Assembly: GCA_001822075.1 (NCBI GenBank)
Contig: MHPK01000002.1
Location: 75,872-139,871, forward strand
From: Candidatus Staskawiczbacteria bacterium RIFOXYB1_FULL_38_37
GTDB taxonomy: Bacteria > Patescibacteriota > Minisyncoccia > Minisyncoccales > Staskawiczbacteraceae
Direction: 5' to 3'
Length of the DNA: 64,000 nt
Shown: positions 12,693 through 64,000 of the stretch, one piece after another
Position numbering within the stretch: the stretch's first letter is position 1
How the letters are laid out: each line of letters begins with the position of its first letter
Made by a program: the position numbers and the translations under genes
The notes under the pieces: generated by a model
Seen by the model: only the letters and a program-made list of their open reading frames with translations
The model's database searches: none
Told to the model about the DNA's origin: nothing

Positions 12693-12771
12693 AATTTTAG
12701 TGTAATATAAATTATAGCAGGGAGCCCGATGCTCTGCTGTTTTTGTTTTAAGTTATCCACAGGGTGAAGGG

Positions 12772-12800
12772 TTGACGCGGATTCTTATTAGTAATACTAT
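12772..12800 (+). promoter_or_regulatory. sigma70-like promoter of Fur-like gene 1
   Basis: TTGACG - 17 nt - TACTAT; followed by ATTAGGAATAATTATTA, containing the palindrome AATAATTATT at 12810-12819. Confidence 0.5.
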
Positions 12801-12834
12801 TTAATTAGGAATAATTATTATCAATAAAATAAAC

Positions 12835-13233
12835 ATGAACGGAAAAAATATTGCAGAGGAAGAGCGCATGACATCTCAGAAAGAAATAGTTTTAGACTAT
12901 GTAAAAAATACAAAATGCCACCCTTCTGCCCAAAAAGTTTATACAGAAACAAAAAGATTGCTCCCGCGCATAAGCAAAGCCACTGTTTACAGAATTCTGA
13001 ATAATTTTAAAGATAAGGGAGAAATTCAAGAAATAGCCACAAAAAATATCACTTTTTTTGATGGGGATTTATCAAGCCACAGCCACTTTATATGTCAGGC
13101 ATGCGGAACTGTTTTTGATATTTTTGACGAATGCTCAAAATGCAATATTATAAAAAACAAAAAATTAAAGGTCGGAAAAATTAACAATTATAGAATTTAC
13201 TTTTATGGAATCTGCAAAAAGTGCAAAAAATAA
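12835..13233 (+). CDS. Fur-family transcriptional regulator (copy 1)
   Basis: Winged-helix region ISKATVYRILNNF, HSHFICQACG and CxxC pairs; alternative start at Met 12868. Confidence 0.8.
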   Translation: MNGKNIAEEERMTSQKEIVLDYVKNTKCHPSAQKVYTETKRLLPRISKATVYRILNNFKDKGEIQEIATKNITFFDGDLSSHSHFICQACGTVFDIFDECSKCNIIKNKKLKVGKINNYRIYFYGICKKCKK

Positions 13234-13516
13234 TAATTTTTGCCATGACTGCCAAAAAGAAATAGAGCTTGAGGGAGATGATATAAAAAATGGAGTTTTG
13301 CTTGTATATGACGATAACGGAGAAAAAATAAATATTTTAAAATGTAATGAGTGTTTTACTGAAAATAAGGCTTTGAATAATTTTAGAAAATGCGAGGTTT
13401 ATTCAAGGGTTGTAGGCTACATAAGGCCTGTTGAGCAGTGGCACAAAGGCAAAAAGCAGGAGTTTGGCGAAAGGCAGGAGTATATAATGCCCGAGAGCAA
13501 TTCTTTCTGCTGTTGA
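13205..13516 (+). CDS. free-standing NrdD C-terminal-like protein (Zn ribbon plus glycyl-radical-loop-like motif), copy 1
   Basis: CHDC..CNEC then CEVYSRVVGYIRPVEQWHKGKKQEFGERQEY, resembling the class III RNR C-terminus; overlaps the Fur-like gene by 29 nt. Confidence 0.55.
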   Translation: MESAKSAKNNNFCHDCQKEIELEGDDIKNGVLLVYDDNGEKINILKCNECFTENKALNNFRKCEVYSRVVGYIRPVEQWHKGKKQEFGERQEYIMPESNSFCC

Positions 13517-13526
13517 AAAGTAATAT

Positions 13527-13706
13527 ATGAAAAACATAAAAACTAGGAAAAATACAGAAAAAAAGAATATTCAGTGCGTTCTTTGCCATGCAAACTTTGA
13601 AGTATGGCTTGATAACCTAAAACCCGGTTCAGAAAGAGAAGAAAAACTGCGCGGACATCTTTTAAGTTATTGCCCGGCTTGCGCCAGAGAAGACAATCAA
13701 AATTAA
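13527..13706 (+). CDS. small zinc-ribbon protein (59 aa; below the ORF-track cutoff)
   Basis: Hand translation MKNIKTRKNTEKKNIQCVLCHANFEVWLDNLKPGSEREEKLRGHLLSYCPACAREDNQN; CxxC..CxxC. Confidence 0.4.
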   Translation: MKNIKTRKNTEKKNIQCVLCHANFEVWLDNLKPGSEREEKLRGHLLSYCPACAREDNQN

Positions 13707-13753: not shown

Positions 13754-14353
13754 ATGGAAAAATATAAATTGCCAAACTTGCCGTATGGCTATAAAGATTT
13801 AGAGCCGTATATGTCAGAAGAAGTTTTAACTTTACACCATACGAAACACCATAAAGCATATGTTGAATCAGCCAATGCTTTATTGGATAAAATTAAGGAT
13901 GCTAGAGATAAAAATTCAGAATTGGATTTTAAGTCAGTTTTAAAATCTTTTTCTTTTAATGTAGCCGGCCACATTTTGCATGAGATATTTTGGAAAATTA
14001 TGGCCCCTGCTGAAGCTTCGGCAGGCAAGCCTAATGGCGAATTAGCAAAAATGATAGAAAAAGAATTCGGAAGTTTTGAACGGTTTAAAACAGAATTTTC
14101 AGAAACCGCAAAATCAGTTGAGGGTTCGGGCTGGGCTGTTTTAGCCCTCCACAAAGAACACGGGAATCTTAATATAATACAGATTGAAAAGCACAATGTT
14201 AACTTTTATCCGGAACAAAAAATTATTTTATGCCTGGATGTCTGGGAGCACGCATATTATTTGGATTATAAAAACGACAGAGCAAAATTTATTGAAAACT
14301 GGTGGAACATAGTTAATTGGGAAGAAGTAGAGAGCCGTTTTAAAAGTACGTAA
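13754..14353 (+). CDS. sod: Fe/Mn superoxide dismutase
   Basis: HHTKHHKAYV and DVWEHAYYLDYKNDR signatures. Confidence 0.95.
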   Translation: MEKYKLPNLPYGYKDLEPYMSEEVLTLHHTKHHKAYVESANALLDKIKDARDKNSELDFKSVLKSFSFNVAGHILHEIFWKIMAPAEASAGKPNGELAKMIEKEFGSFERFKTEFSETAKSVEGSGWAVLALHKEHGNLNIIQIEKHNVNFYPEQKIILCLDVWEHAYYLDYKNDRAKFIENWWNIVNWEEVESRFKST

Positions 14354-14372
14354 TCAACAATCATCAACTAGT

Positions 14373-14405
14373 AAACGCCCCAGACAGTGTCTGGGGCGTT
14401 TGTTT
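14373..14405 (+). terminator. rho-independent terminator
   Basis: 13-bp stem AAACGCCCCAGAC / GTCTGGGGCGTTT plus T-rich tail. Confidence 0.85.
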
Positions 14406-18881: not shown

Positions 18882-18944
18882 ATATCAAAAGGTCAGAGCA
18901 AAAAATAAAAAATCAATAATAATAATTTTTAATAACTACCTTAT

Positions 18945-20755: not shown

Positions 20756-20956
20756 ATGACAAAGATTACATCAAAAACTATACTAAAAGAAATATTGGAG
20801 AAGAAAAGAGGCGCAGAAATTTTAATGAAAAATAACGTGCCTTGTTTGTCTTGCCCCATGGCTTCATTTGAAATTGATAAACTGAAAATTGGCGAAGTTT
20901 GTAAAATGTATGGATTAAATTTGGAAAAAATATTAAAAGAGCTGAATAGAAAATGA
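20756..20956 (+). CDS. DUF1858-like small redox/disulfide domain protein
   Basis: 66 aa; PCLSCP motif; overlaps the copA start. Confidence 0.5.
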
Positions 20957-53127: not shown

Positions 53128-54264
53128 ATGAAAAAACAACTTGGACAATTTTTTACAACGAAAGCAGATGCCGTTCTTTTGGGTTTTGAAAATTTTGTCA
53201 AAAATAAATATGTTGTTGACCCCTTTGCCGGCAATAAAGATTTGATAAATTGGGCGAAAAAAAATAATTGCAAAGAGGTTGTTGGTTTTGATTATGATAA
53301 AAATTATATTGATAATAAAGAAGTTTTTTTGAACGATTCGATAAATCAGGCGCAGAAATATAGATTTGTTTGTACTAATCCGCCATATCTGCATAAGAAC
53401 AAGGCAGACAAAACAACTAAAGATAAATTTTTTAATGGATTTAATTCAAAATTTGAGGATTTATATCAAATATCAATTAATTCAGTTTTAAATAGCGAAG
53501 AAGGTATTTTAATTGTCCCCTTAAATTTTCTTTGCGCTGAAAATTCAAAAAAAATTAGGGATTTATTTTTTGATAAATTTGAAATTATAAAATTGAATAT
53601 TTTTTCTTCTCAAATTTTTAAAGATACAACCTATAATGTAGTGTCATTTTATTTTAAAGAAAAGAAAGATGATTCCTCTAAAAATAAAATTTCAGCCACA
53701 ATTTTTCCAGATAATAAAAATATTACATTTACAATTCAAAAAGAATTTAATTGGCAATTAGGAGGGGATTTTATTAATAGAATAAAAAATACGAAAAATT
53801 ATCTCGGAATTTTTCGCCTTACAGAGGATTATTTAAAATCCGGTGAGTATGAAGTGGAAATGGCGTTGCAAAACATAAAAGATAGAAAAATTTTTCATAT
53901 TAGCTCTGGGATTAAAGAGAAACTGAAAAAAAATATTTTGTTTCTTAGGGCAATAGACAGCAAGAGTGGCAAAAAAATTCAAATAGAAGATATAAGGGAC
54001 TATGGTATCGCGGGGCTTGCAGGAAAAAATACTTCGCGAAATATGGCCCACTTAATTTTTGATAAAGATATCCCGATAAACGAGCAAGTAGGGCTGATGA
54101 CGCAATTTAATAAAGAATTGAATGAAAACAGAGATAAATATTTTTCGTATTTTTTAACAAATTTCAGGGATAATAATAGAAAAAGAATTTCTTTTGACTT
54201 AGTTTATAAATTTTTAAATTATATTTATCATGAAAAAAAGTCTAAACAACCAACACTATTTTAA
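53128..54264 (+). CDS. N6-adenine DNA methyltransferase (gamma-class order of motifs)
   Basis: LGQFFT, VVDPFAGNKDL (motif I-like), CTNPPYL (motif IV). Confidence 0.75.
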   Translation: MKKQLGQFFTTKADAVLLGFENFVKNKYVVDPFAGNKDLINWAKKNNCKEVVGFDYDKNYIDNKEVFLNDSINQAQKYRFVCTNPPYLHKNKADKTTKDKFFNGFNSKFEDLYQISINSVLNSEEGILIVPLNFLCAENSKKIRDLFFDKFEIIKLNIFSSQIFKDTTYNVVSFYFKEKKDDSSKNKISATIFPDNKNITFTIQKEFNWQLGGDFINRIKNTKNYLGIFRLTEDYLKSGEYEVEMALQNIKDRKIFHISSGIKEKLKKNILFLRAIDSKSGKKIQIEDIRDYGIAGLAGKNTSRNMAHLIFDKDIPINEQVGLMTQFNKELNENRDKYFSYFLTNFRDNNRKRISFDLVYKFLNYIYHEKKSKQPTLF

Positions 54265-55141
54265 AATATCTATGGAAAATCCAGAAGGCATTTTAGATGA
54301 ATTTTATGTTTTTGACGAAAAACACCCTCAATTGGAAAAGTATGTTTCTAATACAAAAGATATTAAAAATCTTTTGATTACGATAAAGACATTAAAAGAA
54401 CGGGGAGAAGATAAAGCAACTACTAAAAAATATTTGATAGAACTTTCTAATATCCTAAATAAATTTTCTAATTGTTCAGAGTTCGGTTGTTTTATAAATG
54501 CTTGTGATAGTTTTTTAGATTTTGCAAAAACTGATTTAAATTTACTCGGGAAAATAGCGGACAAATATTTTGAGAAAAGAATTTTGAATGAATCAATCCC
54601 CGAAGAGTGGATACAGGCGATACTAGACTCAAATTCGTCTAGAAAAAAAAGCAAATGCGGAGAAGAAAAACTAATATATATCTTAAAACATAATGGTTTT
54701 CAGGAAATTAAAAAATGGAACGATTTTTTCAAAAAAGAAAAATGTGTCGCTAAATTTTCTAAAAATTTTAGCGTTAAAAATATTAGAAGAAAATTGAATA
54801 TTAAATTATCTACTAAAAAGCAGAATAAAAATTTAGATTTAATTATCAAAAGCGGGGACAAAATCTTTATGTGTGAAGCAAAGCATTTAAACACTTCTGG
54901 GGGAGGACAAGATAAGCAGATATCAGAATTAATTGAGATAGTTAATTTAAGAGAAAATAATAAAAATATTTATTATATAGCCTTTTTAGATGGCATTTAT
55001 TCTAATGTTCTCTTAAATAGCGCTGATGGAGGAAGTAAATTAAAGCAACAACAAAACGAGATTAAAAAATATTTGTCCATTAATTATAATAATTTTTGGG
55101 TAAATACAGCAGGATTTAAACAGTTGGCTTCTGATATGTAA
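54230..55141 (+). CDS. putative type II restriction endonuclease (PD-(D/E)xK-like)
   Basis: Overlaps the methyltransferase gene end; LDLIIKSGDKIFMCEAKH fits D..(E/C)xK; alternative start ATG 54272. Confidence 0.5.
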   Translation: MKKSLNNQHYFKISMENPEGILDEFYVFDEKHPQLEKYVSNTKDIKNLLITIKTLKERGEDKATTKKYLIELSNILNKFSNCSEFGCFINACDSFLDFAKTDLNLLGKIADKYFEKRILNESIPEEWIQAILDSNSSRKKSKCGEEKLIYILKHNGFQEIKKWNDFFKKEKCVAKFSKNFSVKNIRRKLNIKLSTKKQNKNLDLIIKSGDKIFMCEAKHLNTSGGGQDKQISELIEIVNLRENNKNIYYIAFLDGIYSNVLLNSADGGSKLKQQQNEIKKYLSINYNNFWVNTAGFKQLASDM

Positions 55142-57338: not shown

Positions 57339-57405
57339 CCCATACTTATCCACAGGCTTTACTATAGCCGTTAGTATATAATTATATAATATAAAAATTT
57401 ATCAT

Positions 57406-59025
57406 ATGAAAATTAAATCATTTGCAATAATATCAGCATTATTTTTAGTTTTATTAATAATTCCAGGTGCCAGTTATGCGCAGACTTGGTGCCATACTTT
57501 TAATAAAAATTTAGGCGTTGCAGATTCTGGCTCAATTGATGTGGCATATCTTCATGTCGCTCTTTTATCAGAGGGCATTTCATATGGAAATGACGGTCTT
57601 ATTGCTTATTCAGATGGAACGATTGCCGGCGTAATCGTATTTCAGGAAAAATATGCTTCTGAAATTTTAGCTCCATGGGGCCTCACAAAAGGCACAGGAT
57701 ATGTTGGCACAACAACAAGGGCAAAACTAAACCAGCTTTATGGATGTTCAAGCTCTTCGGGCAATTCAGGGACACCCACTTGCGCTGTAAACTGGCAGTG
57801 CACAAATTGGGGCAATTGCTACAGCAACCAGCAAATAAGAGTTTGCACTGACTACAATTTCTGCGGCACAACTTCTGGCAAGCCAGTTGAAACCCAATCC
57901 TGCGCTTCTTCAACCTGCGCTCCAAGTTGGCAGTGCACGGGTTGGAGCGCATGTTCTGGCGGCCAGCAAACTAAAACTTGCACAGATTATAACTTCTGCG
58001 GCACAACTTCTGGCAAGCCGGCAACAACGCAGTTTTGTTCTTCTACTAATACAAATAACACAAACAATACAAACACTTGCCAGGCGACCTGCATAACTCA
58101 GACAGATGGAGTTTATGCCATTGACTGCTATGGAAATCCGACAAAGTGCAGTTCAACTCAAATTTGCGAAAAAACTTTTGACACAAGCTATAACTATTCA
58201 AGCGGGTATGTGCAGACTATACAAACTTTAACAGGGGCCCACTGCGCATACAGCAGTAGCAGCAACACAAATAATACAAGTTGCACGCCAAATTGGCAGT
58301 GCGCTGGTTGGGGCGCATGCTATAACGGTTATCAAACACAAACTTGCACAGATTACAACTTCTGCGGCACAACATATAACAAACCTGCAACAAGCCGGAG
58401 TTGTTGTACCGAAGATTGGGAGTGCGGTAATTGGTCAGCTTGCGCTAACAACCAACAAACGCGTACCTGCGCAGATTTAAATAGTTGCGGAATTGCAACT
58501 AAAACTGAAAGCCAGTATTGTTGTGTTGAAAATTGGGACTGCGGTGACTGGAGTAGCTGCAACAATGAACAACAGACAAAAACCTGCGTAGATTTAAATA
58601 ATTGCGGCACAACTTTAAATAAGCCCGCAACCTCGCAATATTGTTGCGAGCCCAATTGGTTTTGCAGTCTCTGGGGAGTTTGTTCAGCTTATGGCCAGCA
58701 AACAAGAACCTGCGCCGATTCAAATAGTTGCGGAACTCCAGAAGGCAAGCCAGAAACAACGCGATCTTGCGCCTGCGTTGAAAAATGGCAATGCGGAGCT
58801 TTTAGTGCTTGCTACAATAGTCAGCAGACGCGCTTTTGCTATGATGCAAATCACTGCGGAACTACAACAAACAAACCCTATACTAAGCAGTCATGCACCT
58901 CAACTTGCAGTCCAAATTATGTATGCAGCCAACAGCCCGCCTGCAAAAACAGCCAGATACAGAGCTACTGCTATGATTTAAATGCGTGCTTTAGCCAGTC
59001 TGAATTTAGAATCTGCGCATTTTAA
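57406..59025 (+). CDS. secreted protein: peptidoglycan-binding-like module plus about 8 six-Cys repeats
   Basis: Signal peptide; FQEKYASEILAPWGL; repeats C-x3-W-x-C-x2-W-x2-C-x4-5-Q-x-(R/K)-x-C-x-D-x-N-x-CGT. Confidence 0.7.
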   Translation: MKIKSFAIISALFLVLLIIPGASYAQTWCHTFNKNLGVADSGSIDVAYLHVALLSEGISYGNDGLIAYSDGTIAGVIVFQEKYASEILAPWGLTKGTGYVGTTTRAKLNQLYGCSSSSGNSGTPTCAVNWQCTNWGNCYSNQQIRVCTDYNFCGTTSGKPVETQSCASSTCAPSWQCTGWSACSGGQQTKTCTDYNFCGTTSGKPATTQFCSSTNTNNTNNTNTCQATCITQTDGVYAIDCYGNPTKCSSTQICEKTFDTSYNYSSGYVQTIQTLTGAHCAYSSSSNTNNTSCTPNWQCAGWGACYNGYQTQTCTDYNFCGTTYNKPATSRSCCTEDWECGNWSACANNQQTRTCADLNSCGIATKTESQYCCVENWDCGDWSSCNNEQQTKTCVDLNNCGTTLNKPATSQYCCEPNWFCSLWGVCSAYGQQTRTCADSNSCGTPEGKPETTRSCACVEKWQCGAFSACYNSQQTRFCYDANHCGTTTNKPYTKQSCTSTCSPNYVCSQQPACKNSQIQSYCYDLNACFSQSEFRICAF

Positions 59026-61143: not shown

Positions 61144-61498
61144 CGCGCCTTGGAGGAGTAGTACCTCGACAGTCTCATATTGTAGCCTCGTGCGATTCGA
61201 GGCAAAATGTGACCCCGAGCGGTAACGCTCGGCGGAAAAATTCCTTAAATTGCTGGAAACCCTGCAAGCATCCTAAAATACTACTATGCGTAGTAGCATG
61301 GTAGTGATAATTTTTAGGCGATGCAGACAATCAGCAGCCAAATCCACGAAAGTGGAGAGGTTCAGAGACTATAATAGGAATTACCAATTCGTGTGCCTGC
61401 CGGTAGGCAGGAATTGGTAAGTGGTATAGTCCATTCCTTTTAGCGATAAAAGGTAAAAAAAGAAGCTGTAGGCCCTGGTGCAATTCCAGGAGGCGCAA
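61144..61498 (+). tRNA. intron-containing tRNA (CAU), initiator-like; exons 61144-61178 and 61463-61498
   Basis: Cloverleaf forms only after removing 61179-61462; C1xA72 mismatch, A11:U24, U8, U33, anticodon CAU. Confidence 0.7.
61179..61462 (+). ncRNA. group I intron in the anticodon loop (no ORF)
   Basis: Core elements AAAUUGCUGGAAACCC, GCAGCCAAAUCC, GUUCAGAGACUAUA, GGUAUAGUCC; 5' exon ends in U, intron ends in G. Confidence 0.75.
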
Positions 61499-61511
61499 CA
61501 TTTTTAAATCG

Positions 61512-61665: not shown

Positions 61666-61734
61666 CATGAAGCTTTCAATACGAGAGACCTGATTTCCCG
61701 ACTGAGAATTTTTCTCCCGTTTTTGGTTATTCAC

Positions 61735-61763
61735 TTGACAGACTTCTGGATTAGGAATATTAT
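61735..61763 (+). promoter_or_regulatory. promoter of Fur-like gene 2
   Basis: TTGACA - 17 nt - TATTAT, overlapped by ATTAGGAATATTATTA (the same motif as upstream of copy 1). Confidence 0.5.
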
Positions 61764-61809
61764 TAAAATAATAATTAAACTCAAATAGGAATCACTACTA
61801 AACTTATAG

Positions 61810-62172
61810 ATGATTACATCACAGAGAAAAATTATCTCGGATTATCTAAAAAATGTTGCTTCTCATCCTTCGGCCGAGAAAATTTATCTTGAAGTCAGGA
61901 AGATATTGCCGAGAATAAGCAAAGGGACAGTTTACAGAAACTTGAAGACCCTAAAAGAGAATGGAGAAATTCAGGAGATTTCTATAGGCGAATCGCGTTA
62001 TGACGGCAACATTTCCTCGCACGCTCATTATATCTGTCAAAAGTGCGGCAGGATATTTGATATTTTTGAAGACTGCCGGAATTGTAAAATCCTAAAGCAT
62101 AAAAGAACAAAGGTCGGGAAAATAAATCAATATCAAATTAATTTCTACGGTATCTGCAAAAAATGTGGATAA
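61810..62172 (+). CDS. Fur-family transcriptional regulator (copy 2)
   Basis: Clearly paralogous to 12835-13233 when aligned by eye over the whole length: ISKGTVYRNLKTL, HAHYICQKCG, FYGICKKCG. Confidence 0.8.
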   Translation: MITSQRKIISDYLKNVASHPSAEKIYLEVRKILPRISKGTVYRNLKTLKENGEIQEISIGESRYDGNISSHAHYICQKCGRIFDIFEDCRNCKILKHKRTKVGKINQYQINFYGICKKCG

Positions 62173-62461
62173 CCAAAATAAAACCATGCAAGAAACAAAT
62201 AATATCTGCCACGACTGTGGCGCAAACATAAAAATCAACGGGGAGGAAATAGAGAACGGTGTGTGTTTAATTTATGAGAACGTCAGCGAGAAAATAGGTA
62301 TTTTAAAATGCAATGATTGCTACGCGAAAGATTCTGCTTTGAGAAATTTTCAAGAGTGCGAGGTTTATTCAAGAGTAGTCGGCTACCTGAGGCCGGTTGA
62401 ACAATGGAACAGAGGTAAAAAAACAGAGTATTCAGAGAGAAAAGAATATGTCGTTAAGTAA
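62165..62461 (+). CDS. free-standing NrdD C-terminal-like protein, copy 2
   Basis: CHDC..CNDC then CEVYSRVVGYLRPVEQWNRGKKTEYSERKEY; overlaps the Fur-like gene end; alternative start Met 62186. Confidence 0.55.
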   Translation: MDNQNKTMQETNNICHDCGANIKINGEEIENGVCLIYENVSEKIGILKCNDCYAKDSALRNFQECEVYSRVVGYLRPVEQWNRGKKTEYSERKEYVVK

Positions 62462-62485
62462 AACTAATTAAATAATTAAAATATC

Positions 62486-62911
62486 GTGAACAAAAAAATT
62501 ATTATTCCAGCAATTATTATTGGTATCTTTGCGGTAGCAGCTGTAATTGCGTTTAATAAAACCGACCAGACCGCTGAAAATCCAGTTGTGGCAGAAAACA
62601 AAGAATCAACGGTGAAGGAATTTACCATGACCTCTTTTTATGAAATTGTCGACGACCAGCCAAAACCGCAATACTCTCTCAAAGAAATTAATGTTAATAA
62701 AGGAGATTTAGTAAGGATTAAAATCACTGTAACCAAAGGTATGCATGATTTTAAAATTGACGAGTTTAATGTATTTGCGGACACCAAAGAACTCAACAAA
62801 GAATATGTGGTTGAATTTGTAGCCGATAAAGCTGGGGAGTTTATTTATTATTGCACTAAACCAGGACATCGGGCAAACGGACATTGGGGAACCCTGATAG
62901 TAACCGAATAA
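62486..62911 (+). CDS. membrane-anchored cupredoxin-fold protein
   Basis: TM helix; GMHDF and YYCTKPGHRANGHWG ligand-like pattern; GTG start. Confidence 0.65.
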   Translation: MNKKIIIPAIIIGIFAVAAVIAFNKTDQTAENPVVAENKESTVKEFTMTSFYEIVDDQPKPQYSLKEINVNKGDLVRIKITVTKGMHDFKIDEFNVFADTKELNKEYVVEFVADKAGEFIYYCTKPGHRANGHWGTLIVTE

Positions 62912-62914
62912 ATA

Positions 62915-64000
62915 ATGACTTTATGGTTTCAATCACCCGAATTATTTTATAGTTTAGGCAGATGGGCAGGATTTACTGGTTTTATATGCTTGTCCCTTCT
63001 TATCTTCTCTGGTGATACTGCTAAGTTTTTTGATAGATATTTTGGCTTAAACAGAATTATTATATTTCAAAGAAAGTTTTCGCTTTTTATCGCGGTTTTT
63101 GTTTTTTTGCATCCATTATTTTTTGTTCTTTCGGACAGTTCATTTATAAGATATTTGATCATTCCCGACTTTACAGCATTCCCCTTTGCAGCAGGAGCCA
63201 TATCTTTTTATATTTTTATAGTTGTTATGATTGCTTCTAAAATATATAAAAAAATCTCTTATGTAGTTTGGCAGTACATCCATATTCTCATTTATACGTT
63301 ATTCTTTTTCAGTTTATATCACGTTGTAAATTGGGGCTCTAGCAGTAATATTATTTTTTATAAAATAATATACGGAATTTTACTGCTTGCTGTAAGCGTT
63401 GGGATAATTTACAGAACGCAGTATAAAATAAGAAAAAGACATGCGGGCAAGTTCTATGTTAAAGAGATAAAAATAGAAACGAAAGACGTTTTTACATTAG
63501 CGCTAAATCCGGATAAAAAATTTACATTCAAGGCTGGGCAATTCTGTTTTCTAAGATTGAACAAAAATAAATTACACTCCAGGCATCCATTTACCATATC
63601 AAGCTCTCCTTACGAACAAGATTTGCGTTTTACTATTAAAAATACGGGAAGATTCACGAAGACAGCATTTGAACTGGAAAAAGGGGAAGAAGTTATCATA
63701 GACGGGCCCTTCGGCATTTTTACCTTAAAAGACAGCGACAAAGATGTTGTTTTCATTGCCGGAGGAGTCGGGGTTGCCCCATTTTTGAGCATGATAAGAG
63801 ACAATTTATTTGATAAAAAAGATAAAGATATTCTTTTGCTTTATGGCGCAAAGACAAAGGAGGAAATAATATCCAAAGAAGAATTAGACAGCATTAAAGA
63901 GCAACATTTTAGGAAAATATATGTGTTAAGCAATGAGGCCGTTTCTCAGGAAGGATATGAGAATGGTTATATTGATAAGGCCTTGGCTGAGAAGTATGTT
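62915..64000 (+). CDS. ferric-reductase/NOX-like flavocytochrome (FRD membrane domain plus FAD and NAD(P)H domains), 3'-truncated by the window edge
   Basis: Hand translation: TM His residues (LHPLFF, YIHILIY, LYHVVN), RHPFTISS FAD motif, VVFIAGGVGVAPF NAD(P)H motif; absent from the ORF track because it has no stop in the window. Confidence 0.75.
   Translation, partial: MTLWFQSPELFYSLGRWAGFTGFICLSLLIFSGDTAKFFDRYFGLNRIIIFQRKFSLFIAVFVFLHPLFFVLSDSSFIRYLIIPDFTAFPFAAGAISFYIFIVVMIASKIYKKISYVVWQYIHILIYTLFFFSLYHVVNWGSSSNIIFYKIIYGILLLAVSVGIIYRTQYKIRKRHAGKFYVKEIKIETKDVFTLALNPDKKFTFKAGQFCFLRLNKNKLHSRHPFTISSSPYEQDLRFTIKNTGRFTKTAFELEKGEEVIIDGPFGIFTLKDSDKDVVFIAGGVGVAPFLSMIRDNLFDKKDKDILLLYGAKTKEEIISKEELDSIKEQHFRKIYVLSNEAVSQEGYENGYIDKALAEKYV

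Follow-up and report, generated by a model that had tools for sequence, protein, structure and literature searches.

[quoted passage not shown] Glycyl radical enzymes are all destroyed by oxygen in one and the same way. The reading we favour, with a confidence slightly better than even, is that the small protein, here called the tail, serves under PerR control as a spare part for class III ribonucleotide reductase that oxygen has cleaved, in the manner of GrcA/YfiD. According to a 2026 review, pyruvate formate-lyase is the one enzyme for which glycyl-radical spare parts are known (GrcA/YfiD and Y06I of phage T4). An earlier note on this DNA was concerned with the two gene pairs and a promoter motif common to them; the NrdD-tail identity goes beyond that question and is the more interesting part of the locus. 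In the following, the window denotes the whole 64-kb stretch of DNA that was analysed. The host of both operons is a tiny groundwater bacterium.

The four open reading frames of the two pairs, all on the forward strand, are present at the coordinates given in the earlier note: 12835..13233 (regulator, 132 aa) and 13205..13516 (tail, 103 aa, C-terminus ...NSFCC) for copy 1, and 61810..62172 (regulator, 120 aa) and 62165..62461 (tail) for copy 2. Their paralogy was borne out, the regulators being identical at 69 of 119 positions (58%, E 1e-54) and the tails at 51 of 86 (59%, E 1e-41). The layout of regulator plus tail is also common to both copies, but an identical overlapping junction is not. 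In copy 1 the overlap is 29 nt and the tail ATG falls within the Fur YGIC codons, whereas in copy 2 an overlap of 8 nt is obtained only with GTG 62165 as start (98 aa), and none with ATG 62186 (91 aa). The closest relative of copy 2, L008, has no overlap, like the ATG 62186 start. The copy-1 operon continues with a 59-aa CxxC...CxxC reading frame from the ORF list (13527..13706, forward strand), which has equally placed homologues in L001 and L017 and no Pfam match. Its last gene is the sod that had been placed downstream, a Fe/Mn superoxide dismutase (SOD) by Pfam and NCBIfam (13754..14353, forward strand), followed by a terminator-like hairpin at 14370-14404.

Pfam recognises the tail as NRDD (43.7 bits, gathering threshold (GA) 26.2), and at E values up to 0.01 NRDD was the only match, with no PFL-type Gly_radical (InterPro IPR011140). 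The match covers only positions 505-562 of the 562 in the model, and the ten-stranded NrdD barrel with its finger-loop cysteine is absent from the tail proteins (98-103 aa). Both tails consist of a CHDC...CxxC zinc ribbon followed by an invariant SRVVGY motif; in copy 2 the ribbon cysteines are C15, C18, C49 and C52, and the candidate radical glycine is G73. Across 69 tail sequences 22 residues are invariant, among them G73, the four cysteines and the motif CEVYSRVVGYLRPV..W..GK..E...R. The glycine motif is identical to that of Patescibacteria NrdD C-termini and aligns to the glycine loop of Thermotoga maritima NrdD. With the glycyl-radical domain of NrdD (phage T4 G580; T. maritima 4coi/4u3e) the tail shares SRVVGYLRPV..W..GK and a preceding four-Cys metal site; unlike NrdD, it has neither catalytic barrel nor ATP-cone. 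The geometry of the Cys4 site, a putative zinc site, differs from that of the cis site, being CHDC...CxxC with a 30-residue spacer in the tail and CPxHG...CPxC in Patescibacteria NrdD.

Structural searches gave less. In the PDB a profile of the tail family reached T. maritima NrdD weakly (E 0.12). A single tail sequence matched only MoaE there, which was rejected as spurious. AlphaFold2 modelled the tail with moderate confidence (pLDDT 72), and a Foldseek search of the PDB with this model gave nothing at E <= 0.001; on its own and extended, the radical domain probably differs too much from its conformation buried in the enzyme for such a comparison. By its sequence, the second gene of each pair codes for a free-standing glycyl-radical domain that goes back to the C-terminal end of class III NrdD.

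GrcA/YfiD of E. coli and T4 Y06I are likewise small stand-alone C-terminal glycyl-radical domains of a large enzyme, encoded away from the parent enzyme, linked to oxygen stress and found also in phages. They are, however, spare parts for pyruvate formate-lyase, whereas the tail derives from NrdD; to judge from this derivation, it is a GrcA/YfiD analogue of independent origin and not a member of that family. Furthermore, where those proteins have a disordered segment, the N-terminal half of the tail is a Cys4 zinc ribbon; its gene belongs to a PerR-type operon, and in some genomes the tail is the sole glycine domain available to NrdD. We found no description of a stand-alone NrdD-tail family in a literature search, no dedicated model in NCBIfam and no family for it in PHROGs.

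The locus opens onto a large family: stand-alone radical domains derived from NrdD, conserved and easy to recognise, which form 467 clusters at 50% identity. Its members may be stress-regulated (PerR-like or Rrf2), embedded between nrdD and nrdG, part of a two-piece enzyme, or phage-encoded. In Patescibacteria the tails lie behind PerR-like genes together with SOD, SOR (desulfoferrodoxin), rubrerythrin or hemerythrin, in agreement with the redox or oxygen-handling context proposed for both copies, and regulator and tail genes overlap or abut in nearly all of these loci. Three Patescibacteria tails with the architecture of the window copies (type A) have no Fur neighbour (L016, L018, L019). Desulfobacterota tails stand beside Rrf2 and rubrerythrin, all three genes being together in the deltaproteobacterial MAG L048; rubrerythrin adjoins the tail also in L016 and L044, and some tails are orphans. 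Judged by these neighbourhoods, the linkage to oxidative stress recurs under different regulators. About 60 of 80 matches in IMG/VR are stand-alone tails, and on sampled contigs phage genes were confirmed. The family also bears on the question why a phage that infects anaerobes should carry a tail gene. Finally, about ten loci have a family member between nrdD and nrdG, and in related loci nrdG is found directly 3' of nrdD-tail (E. coli NrdG was the search seed; two matches were verified by Pfam). One of these tails, that of L024, is like window copy 2 of type-A architecture, with 55% identity between them; it is the only type-A tail found beside nrdD, and the NrdD that it accompanies is complete.

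That the small reading frames are non-functional remnants of a degraded nrdD is extremely improbable. A match confined to the last 58 or so positions of the NRDD model would be expected of such a relic, but the tails have an N-terminal CHDC zinc ribbon of their own that is absent from NrdD, and the 22 invariant residues, the number of clusters, the conserved operon position and the phage copies argue against decay. In comparison with L008, dN/dS is 0.11 for the copy-2 repressor and 0.32 for the copy-2 tail, values which indicate that both genes are under purifying selection. The conservation data already contradict a relic.

Evidence of what a tail can do comes from five genomes (L027, L028, L038, L039 and L047) in which the NrdD beside a tail gene has no SRVVGY motif. 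These NrdD bodies are 76-85% identical to complete NrdD and keep MCCRL and GGGLFG in all five cases and NLEATPAE in four. In L027, the single body put to Pfam, the NrdD match runs only to position 536 of 562, and the tail beside it spans 510-562. A sequencing frameshift was rejected as the cause, the five assemblies having differing in-frame degenerate ends; in each, a stop codon and an intergenic gap precede a new reading frame with its own zinc ribbon. Since the NrdDs of these genomes lack the glycine motif, the adjacent small protein must, on this comparison, supply it in trans, and family members at such loci must be presumed to act in trans for NrdD. A precedent for a separate C-terminal piece is the split class II reductase NrdJa/NrdJb of Pseudomonas aeruginosa, where the zinc-finger part is a polypeptide of its own; that piece carries no radical, whereas the tail would bear the radical cofactor.

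With five natural two-piece systems in related lineages, the window genome might be thought to have another, its NrdD lacking the glycine domain and the tail being the constitutive radical subunit of class III reductase. We hold this to be decidedly unlikely. The two-piece systems keep their tail inside the nrdD-nrdG operon and it is of a different architecture (type B), whereas the window has two type-A copies, each placed with SOD or NOX under a stress promoter that is controlled by a repressor, and for an essential anaerobic subunit such an arrangement would be strange. The complete NrdD beside the type-A tail of L024 points in the same direction.

Both window regulators match Pfam FUR (PF01475) with 84.9 and 75.2 bits (GA 23.1), and their best relative in the PDB is Bacillus subtilis PerR (2fe3, E 1e-19). 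The regulatory metal ligands H37, D85, H91, H93 and D104 are all aligned and conserved; an Asp at the last of these, rather than the Glu of Fur, is diagnostic of PerR. The cysteines of the structural zinc site (C76, C79, C115 and C118) align with C96, C99, C136 and C139 of B. subtilis PerR and are invariant in 13 relatives. The B. subtilis sequence used for the ligand alignment agrees with the HMMER alignment to 2fe3. The NCBIfam PerR equivalog cut-off is missed (best score 102.1 bits, cut-off 180), with PerR models still the top matches. The Fur-like assignment of the earlier note can accordingly be narrowed: the regulator is, as far as its sequence tells, a PerR-like member of the Fur family. 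In common with B. subtilis PerR it has the fold of Fur, the Cys4 site for structural zinc and the complete set of five regulatory ligands; its gene is likewise the first of an oxidative-stress operon and is preceded by an operator in the form of an AT-rich inverted repeat. It differs in being shorter (120-132 aa), in falling below the equivalog cut-offs, in its translational coupling to the tail gene, and in an extra third CxxC in the dimerisation domain of most members (DCRNC in copy 2).

The last two differences invite another explanation, that the tail is a partner of the PerR-like repressor and not just cargo of its operon. Regulator and tail genes are overlapping or adjacent in nearly all Patescibacteria loci, the two were duplicated and kept jointly in the window genome, and the third CxxC is present in most of the PerR-like proteins. 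We consider it unlikely, and just as unlikely its specific form, in which an oxygen-labile glycyl radical or the Cys4 zinc site reports oxygen or oxidants and modulates the repressor, for example by binding. The family occurs also without any Fur gene (in nrdD-nrdG loci, with Rrf2 and rubrerythrin, as orphans and in phages), even among type-A Patescibacteria tails, and sensing by a radical would need NrdG as well. In a stricter version, which we think very unlikely, repressor and tail would together form an oxygen sensor: the tail would be radicalised in anoxia and cleaved irreversibly by oxygen at the radical glycine, and that cleavage, or loss of the intact tail, would alter repressor activity. 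A protein radical would then do the sensing in a transcriptional switch, and elsewhere the family would provide NrdD with a radical domain in trans or as a spare.

The motif strings described in the earlier note were found exactly at 12804-12820 and 61750-61765. The motif is indeed present at both promoters, but ATTAGGAATA at 61750 is not the positional homologue of the exact copy at 12804: in an alignment anchored on the -35 element it corresponds to ATTAGTAATA of copy 1 (12787). Aligned freely with MAFFT, the upstream regions were misplaced against each other; that alignment was discarded, the -35 anchor being required. Exact ATTAGGAATA occurs twice in the 64-kb window, both times at these promoters, against 0.38 expected. 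This window-only statistic is modest, because 7 of 100 shuffles reach two and the form with one mismatch is not enriched in the window (10 against 9.6 expected). It is conservation in other genomes that lends the motif strong support.

All of the following elements are on the forward strand. The copy-1 promoter (12772..12800) is TTGACG and TACTAT with a 17-nt spacer and includes ATTAGTAATA (12787-12796); its operator TTAATTAGGAATAATTATTATCAA, with the core palindrome AATAATTATT, lies immediately 3' of the -10 element (12801..12824) and is kept in L001, L002, L005, L011, L012, L014, L017, L020 and L022. The copy-2 promoter (61735..61763), read also on the parent contig, is TTGACA and TATTAT with a 17-nt spacer, matching at 11 of 12 positions. 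Its operator box 1 (61750..61775), assigned by reading the sequence, overlaps the -10 element with ATTAGGAATA and runs into a perfect 7-3-7 palindrome, ATTATTA-AAA-TAATAAT (61759-61775); L008 and L009 keep this box while the spacer between -35 and -10 has diverged. Box 2, AAATAGGAATCACTACTAAA (61783..61802), is kept in L008. In all, ten other genomes keep both the position and the sequence of an AT-rich, promoter-overlapping operator in front of their Fur-tail operons, with encoded proteins that are just 55-70% identical. With a matrix built without the window sites, 12803 ranks first in the window at 21.4 bits, above all shuffles (maxima: mean 14.9, highest 19.4 bits); box 2 is the third-best match at 13.7 bits and by itself not significant. 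The Fur/PerR-type autoregulatory box that had been suggested is therefore supported, as a candidate. Its core ATAAT-T-ATTAA resembles the Fur/PerR 7-1-7 box of the B. subtilis consensus; to judge by the NrdR consensus, the operator is probably not an NrdR box. We know of no transcription factor with a known binding site in Patescibacteria; the phylum would gain a candidate operator and a regulon of SOD, SOR, rubrerythrin, class I ribonucleotide reductase and a NOX-like protein with cupredoxin.

Further upstream, copy 1 has TTATCCACA, a DnaA-box consensus (12753..12761), and copy 2 has TTATTCACT (61727..61735), which abuts the -35 element and is one mismatch from the conserved DnaA-box-like GTTATCCACA; in the close relative L008 the element is exact. 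The TTATCCACA element was found at 9 of 11 Fur-tail, 3 of 3 nrdA and 10 of 52 nrdD promoters (expected 0.15, 0.04 and 0.68). The PerR-type operator was not found at the nrdD promoters, and an Rfam search of both loci gave no cis-regulatory RNA.

In L011, L012 and L014 a class I nrdA is divergent from the Fur-tail operon and has the same promoter architecture; in some genomes this aerobic reductase is adjacent and apparently co-regulated. Searches for nrdD and nrdG were negative throughout the window and the 10 kb beyond it, and likewise up to 6 kb from every Fur-linked tail. Many tails end in CC or CxC, which full-length NrdDs do not. These observations would fit a tail that works with class I reductase, or one that acts through its C-terminus as a zinc-ribbon/thiol redox protein. 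Either is very improbable: the whole SRVVGYxRPVxxW is invariant and identical to that of working NrdDs, which would make little sense if NrdG and NrdD were not its partners, window copy 2 has no CC ending, and no mechanism is known by which a glycyl radical would serve a class I enzyme.

If the tail is a spare part for NrdD, both modules would be autoregulated oxidative-stress operons. A PerR-type, metal-dependent and peroxide-sensitive repressor would probably bind the AT-rich operator over the -10 element and the transcription start, and oxidants entering the cell would lift the repression. Oxygen would meanwhile cleave the NrdD backbone at the radical glycine and destroy the enzyme. The tail, co-produced with SOD (copy 1) or with cupredoxin, NOX-like protein and hemerythrin (copy 2), would receive its radical from the activase NrdG and dock on the damaged NrdD body, restoring dNTP synthesis. 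The sequences show the domain identities, the conserved pairing, operon contexts and operator, the presence of the family in nrdD-nrdG operons, and natural NrdDs without a glycine motif; repressor binding, oxidant response, radical installation, and docking or rescue are steps that we infer. The reading is supported because the tail keeps all that a glycyl-radical domain needs, because its family sits in nrdD-nrdG loci and beside five NrdDs without SRVVGY, because the stress linkage recurs and the phage copies parallel T4 Y06I, because PerR ligands and promoter-overlapping operator are conserved, because TTATCCACA is common to Fur-tail, nrdA and nrdD promoters, and because the copy-2 genes are under purifying selection and the family is large.

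Several points count against it. The Fur-linked tails have no nrdD or nrdG nearby; among the 120 matches listed, of at least 8000 to a Patescibacteria NrdD profile, none could be paired with a Fur-tail contig, a result that does not speak against co-occurrence in one genome. Some Fur-tail operons adjoin class I reductase, and those genomes might be without NrdD. The evidence for function in trans comes from type B, the window tails being type A. Cis and trans tails within one genome co-vary only weakly (0.83 identity vs 0.76), the nrdD promoters have no PerR-type operator, and the structural model is of moderate confidence without a significant match. Translational coupling in most loci and the paired duplication could also mean that regulator and tail function together. 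Whether NrdD has a repair part is directly testable with defined proteins, and it bears on DNA synthesis in ultra-small, supposedly anaerobic Patescibacteria across oxic/anoxic boundaries.

The genes behind the copy-2 tail agree with the cupredoxin and NADPH-oxidase-like protein proposed in the earlier note. The 141-aa cupredoxin-like protein (62486..62911, forward strand; kept in L008) scores just under the Pfam GA (20.7 against 21.2) and matches the cupredoxin domain of a Cu nitrite reductase, 6tfd (E 2.4e-10); in this alignment the copper ligands His, Cys and His are kept and the axial Met is replaced by His. Its hydrophobic N-terminal stretch may be read as a membrane anchor. The NOX-like flavocytochrome (62915..64000, forward strand) is cut by the window end and has 403 aa on the parent contig, with Ferric_reduct, FAD_binding_8 and NAD_binding_1 all above GA in one chain. 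In the PDB it comes closest to chains 8qq7/8qt6 (E about 1e-27 over residues 94-401), a prokaryotic NADPH oxidase of the SpNOX type. The two share a length of about 400 aa and a ferric-reductase transmembrane domain with FAD and NAD(P)H domains; unlike SpNOX, the window gene lies between those for the cupredoxin and, on the parent contig, a DUF438-hemerythrin, under a PerR-type promoter.

The four genes proposed in the earlier note were recovered at 12835-13233 and 13205-13516 (copy 1) and at 61810-62172 and 62165-62461 (copy 2). The two pairs are paralogous as suggested, with 58% identity between the Fur-like proteins (E 1e-54) and 59% between the second proteins (E 1e-41). The first protein of each pair belongs to Pfam FUR (84.9 and 75.2 bits, gathering score 23.1); the second, here called the tail, corresponds to the extreme C-terminus of Pfam NRDD (HMM positions 505-562 of 562, 43.7 and 41.5 bits, gathering score 26.2). 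Gene order is the same in both copies, but the supposedly identical overlapping junction is not: in copy 1 the genes overlap by 29 nt, the tail ATG sitting within the Fur YGIC codons, whereas copy 2 has an overlap of 8 nt only with GTG 62165 as start. The alternative start ATG 62186 gives no overlap, as in L008, the closest relative of copy 2. We consider the tail a candidate glycyl-radical domain that would serve class III RNR in trans or as a spare part, on the same principle as GrcA, the spare part of pyruvate formate-lyase (PFL), but of independent origin.

A word-indexed search with the tail gave 460 clusters at 90% identity, of which the best 120 all have 88-122 amino acids, NRDD as the sole domain and a patescibacterial origin wherever the source is named. 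An exhaustive profile search returned 467 clusters at 50% identity (E <= 1e-10), the best 150 being 42-211 amino acids long. Among 69 aligned members 22 residues are invariant, including C15, D17 and C18 of a CHDC motif, C49 and C52, and a block with C65, E66, Y68, S69, R70, V72, G73, Y74, R76, P77, W81, K85, E88 and R92. The same block forms the C-terminus of full-length Patescibacteria NrdD, and the RIVGYL glycine loop of T. maritima NrdD aligns with it weakly (E 0.12). Based on these cysteines and the NrdD-identical block, the tail is predicted to combine a zinc ribbon with an entire NrdD-type glycyl-radical loop, without the catalytic barrel. The predicted tail structure gave no significant structural match. 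The distance from one CxxC pair to the other defines three subtypes. Type A (30 residues) comprises every Fur-linked tail, both window copies and some tails from phages; type B (20-23 residues) comprises most tails linked to nrdD; and type C (32-40 residues) includes those of Desulfobacterota and archaeal MAGs along with many from phages. Many stand-alone tails in alignment A2 end in CC, CxC or CxxC, recalling the pairs of redox cysteines at the C-terminus of class I/II RNR; copy 1 (13205-13516) ends in NSFCC, and no such ending occurs in the copy 2 tail or in full-length NrdDs.

In a scan of one genome per species, a tail gene was found between nrdD and the activase gene nrdG in about ten loci. 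Here nrdG was called by seed search, with Radical_SAM and Fer4_12 confirmed in two cases. NrdD carries its own SRVVGY in six loci (L024, L031, L033, L035, L041, L043) and lacks it in five (L027, L028, L038, L039, L047; sources include Parcubacteria/Moranbacteria and MAGs labelled 'Bdellovibrionales'). The five bodies lacking it have 76-85% identity to a complete NrdD, keep MCCRL, GGGLFG and the zinc site in all five cases and NLEATPAE in four, and end in differing short degenerate sequences; each is followed by a separate tail gene of about 90 codons before nrdG. In L027 the Pfam match of the body ends at 536 of 562, and the adjoining tail spans 510-562. These five loci encode natural two-piece class III RNRs, in which nothing but the tail could carry the radical glycine. 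We take this, seen with type B tails, as strong indirect evidence of a trans role for the family. The tail of L024, located between a complete nrdD and nrdG, is type A-like and has 55% identity to copy 2, making it about as close as the two window copies are to each other.

Spare parts of this kind are known only for PFL according to both Andorfer et al. 2021 (PMC8683613) and a 2026 review, and the tail family makes an explicitly open question testable. RNR-family surveys (PMC9669993) describe split class II enzymes and contain neither a split class III enzyme nor a stand-alone radical domain. In the literature searched, which mostly excluded subscription journals so that an earlier mention is possible, we found no description of the tail family or of split class III RNRs.

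The nearest solved relative of the Fur-like protein is B. subtilis PerR (2fe3, E 1e-19). Both window copies and 11 relatives retain, at aligned positions, the structural cysteines and all five regulatory ligands (H37, D85, H91, H93 and D104 in B. subtilis numbering). The PerR models of NCBIfam rank first yet score under their equivalog cut-offs (102 versus 180 bits); therefore, we use the name PerR-like. B. subtilis PerR lacks the third CxxC that most tail-linked PerR-like proteins have. This pair lies in the dimerisation domain (DCRNC at 62074-62085, ECSKC at 13126-13140) and is absent in L020-L022.

Both operons have sigma-70-type promoters, TTGACG-17-TACTAT at 12772 for copy 1 and TTGACA-17-TATTAT at 61735 for copy 2. 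The shared motif ATTAGGAATA occurs in exact form twice in the 64 kb, solely at these two promoters. The expected count is 0.38 and two were reached in 7 of 100 shuffles, so that the window count taken alone is modest support. We regard phylogenetic footprinting as decisive. Fur-tail operons in ten other genomes, with proteins of only 55-70% identity, share one upstream layout: GTTATCCACA(G), 0-13 nt, TTGAC (-35), 9 nt, wTTAGTAATAaAAT including the -10, and CTAATTAGGAATAATTATTAATAA. A matrix built from the non-window sites alone ranks window position 12803 first with 21.4 bits, compared with a mean maximum of 14.9 (sd 1.8, highest 19.4) on 50 local shuffles. In copy 2, ATTAGGAATA overlaps the -10 and is positionally homologous to ATTAGTAATA (12787) of copy 1, not to the exact copy at 12804 with which it had been paired. 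Downstream of it come a perfect 7-3-7 palindrome (61759-61775) and another AAATAGGAAT box at 61783. L008 and L009, two relatives of copy 2, keep this variant layout, while the -35/-10 spacer and all sequence preceding GTTAT have diverged.

The operator core ATAAT-T-ATTAA resembles the Fur/PerR 7-1-7 box. Together with the footprinting and the matrix ranking, this supports a putative PerR-type autoregulatory operator at both promoters, as far as sequence can show. The observation of the earlier note was confirmed, and its interpretation gained support from protein, promoter and neighbourhood comparisons. The matches ranked second and fourth (18915-18934 on the minus strand, 16.8 bits; 20918-20937 on the plus strand, 13.0 bits) are AT-rich, inside the shuffle range and not significant. 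They lie upstream of an HMA/DsbD-like gene (19235) and a Cu-type P-type ATPase (20953), which are possible regulon members. In L001, L011 and L012 an extra 50-70 nt with an inverted repeat (in L011, GAGACTTGGCA...TGCCAAGTCTC) separates operator and Fur start codon; this insertion is absent from the window.

The upstream element GTTATCCACA matches the DnaA-box consensus. The fetched loci, 896 kb in total, contain 62 copies of TTATCCAC[AT], of which 23 lie in the 200 nt preceding a Fur-tail, nrdA or nrdD gene; these regions make up 1.4% of the sequence. The element is present in 9 of 11 such windows for Fur-tail operons (0.15 matches expected), 3 of 3 for class I nrdA (0.04 expected) and 10 of 52 for nrdD (0.68 expected). 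The Fur-tail operon thus has regulatory DNA in common with genuine RNR genes. Furthermore, the whole layout of the Fur-tail operon (GTTATCCACAG, TTGAC, AT-rich box) is found at the class I nrdA promoters of L011 (2627, minus strand), L012 (4681, minus) and L014 (5575, minus), which suggests one regulon that probably includes this aerobic RNR. These nrdA genes lie divergent from or beside a Fur-tail-SOD operon, accompanied by nrdB in L012 and L014. The PerR-type operator was not seen at nrdD promoters. Within the window, the DnaA-box consensus TTATCCACA is rare, with three sites against 0.45 expected (12753-12761, 57346-57354 and 62164-62172, the last on the minus strand), and in related genomes (loci L001-L095) its enrichment ahead of Fur-tail, nrdA and nrdD genes exceeds 25-fold. 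The site at 57346 precedes a promoter-like TTTACT...TATAAT before ORF 57406-59025, and that at 62164, kept in L008, lies within the overlap of Fur stop codon and tail start.

Downstream of copy 1, the sod gene stated earlier is present; it encodes an Fe/Mn SOD and is followed by a terminator-like hairpin. Ahead of it lies a conserved 59-residue CxxC...CxxC ORF (13527-13706) that has no Pfam family and whose homologues in L001 and L017 occupy the corresponding place. The conserved synteny of copy 1 is TGT, DUF5654, Fur, tail, small ORF, SOD, SpoU, DUF5652, Rrf2 and cysteine desulfurase. Copy 2 is followed by the expected cupredoxin-like and NADPH-oxidase-like genes. The cupredoxin-like protein (141 amino acids, hydrophobic N-terminus) scores slightly under the Pfam cupredoxin thresholds and aligns to the extra cupredoxin domain of copper nitrite reductase 6tfd (E 2.4e-10) with His, Cys and His ligands present and His in place of the axial Met. 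The second protein is by Pfam a ferric-reductase/FAD/NAD flavocytochrome; its gene is cut by the window end and encodes 403 amino acids on the parent contig. Its nearest solved relatives are the chains 8qq7 and 8qt6 of about 400 residues (E about 1e-27), which we take to be SpNOX. On the parent contig the order is Fur, tail, cupredoxin, NOX-like, DUF438-hemerythrin, DsrE-like and a 120-residue ORF, after which the next strong promoter is found. Such a pair, a transmembrane flavocytochrome driven by cytoplasmic NAD(P)H and a cupredoxin outside the cytoplasm, may pass electrons outward to an external acceptor, e.g. O2 or a metal, as part of oxygen defence. The copy 2 module looks accessory, as its flanks differ among L008, L009 and the window. 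Against L008 its dS is uneven, at 0.66 in the Fur gene and 0.18-0.23 in the genes for tail and cupredoxin, which together with the differing flanks suggests recombination or mobility.

The redox context noted for the two copies extends to their relatives. Downstream genes in L001-L015 encode SOD, an EncFtn/rubrerythrin-like protein with SOD, or desulfoferrodoxin, and copy 2 relatives carry cupredoxin-like, NOX-like and DUF438-hemerythrin genes. Outside Patescibacteria oxidative-stress genes again adjoin the tail with a different regulator: a deltaproteobacterial MAG (L048) has Rrf2, tail, rubrerythrin and flavin reductase-rubredoxin in order. Rubrerythrin also adjoins the tail in L016 and L044, and hemerythrin in L019. 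Of the best 80 IMG/VR matches, about 60 are tails that stand alone, and NrdD, NrdG and Fur are all absent within 5 kb of them. The sampled contigs are genuine phage, with the tail gene amid tail sheath, tail tube and tape-measure genes in L117 (4863-5303) and phage replication genes in L119 and L132. Such contigs, lacking nrdD and nrdG near the tail gene, number in the dozens among loci L100-L137.

In all closest-homologue loci (L001-L015, seven distinct contexts) the tail directly follows a FUR gene. This tight coupling and the joint duplication in the window leave room for regulator and tail acting as a sensor pair; and it speaks against a spare part that class I RNR adjoins some Fur-tail operons and that no nrdD or nrdG is found in the window, 10 kb beyond, or within 6 kb of any Fur-linked tail. 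On balance we lean towards a PerR-controlled spare part for oxygen-cleaved NrdD. Under anoxia, a metallated PerR-like dimer would occupy the operator and keep the operon low. Oxidants would inactivate the repressor, and the derepressed cell would make more repressor and tail, with SOD from copy 1 and the cupredoxin, NOX-like and hemerythrin set from copy 2. It is established that oxygen cuts the NrdD of T4 and that of E. coli at the radical glycine. After such a cut, NrdG would radicalise a fresh tail, which would dock in place of the lost NrdD segment like GrcA on PFL.

Additionally, a group I catalytic intron was detected at 61177-61453 on the plus strand (Rfam RF00028, 66 bits, GA 50, E 2.4e-16), with exons at about 61144-61176 and 61454-61500 in an ORF-free stretch before tRNA-Met and tRNA-Asp. 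In-silico removal of the intron reveals a tRNA missed by ARAGORN; since the 5' exon reads ...CTCAT|A, its anticodon is most likely CAU. This fits the intron-split tRNA genes recently reported in Patescibacteria (PMC13011429). A low-GC (0.27) pair of N6 DNA methylase-like and DpnII-like genes at 53128-55141 is probably a restriction-modification system. Near related loci (L002/L003 8863-9937, L002 1-2049, L005 11052-12303, L077, L060, L138 and L179) we observed a reverse transcriptase accompanied by a bAvd-like gene, resembling a diversity-generating retroelement, as well as LAGLIDADG/intein insertions in GARS and NifU and very long NrdD ORFs of 1026-1692 amino acids, which probably contain inteins.
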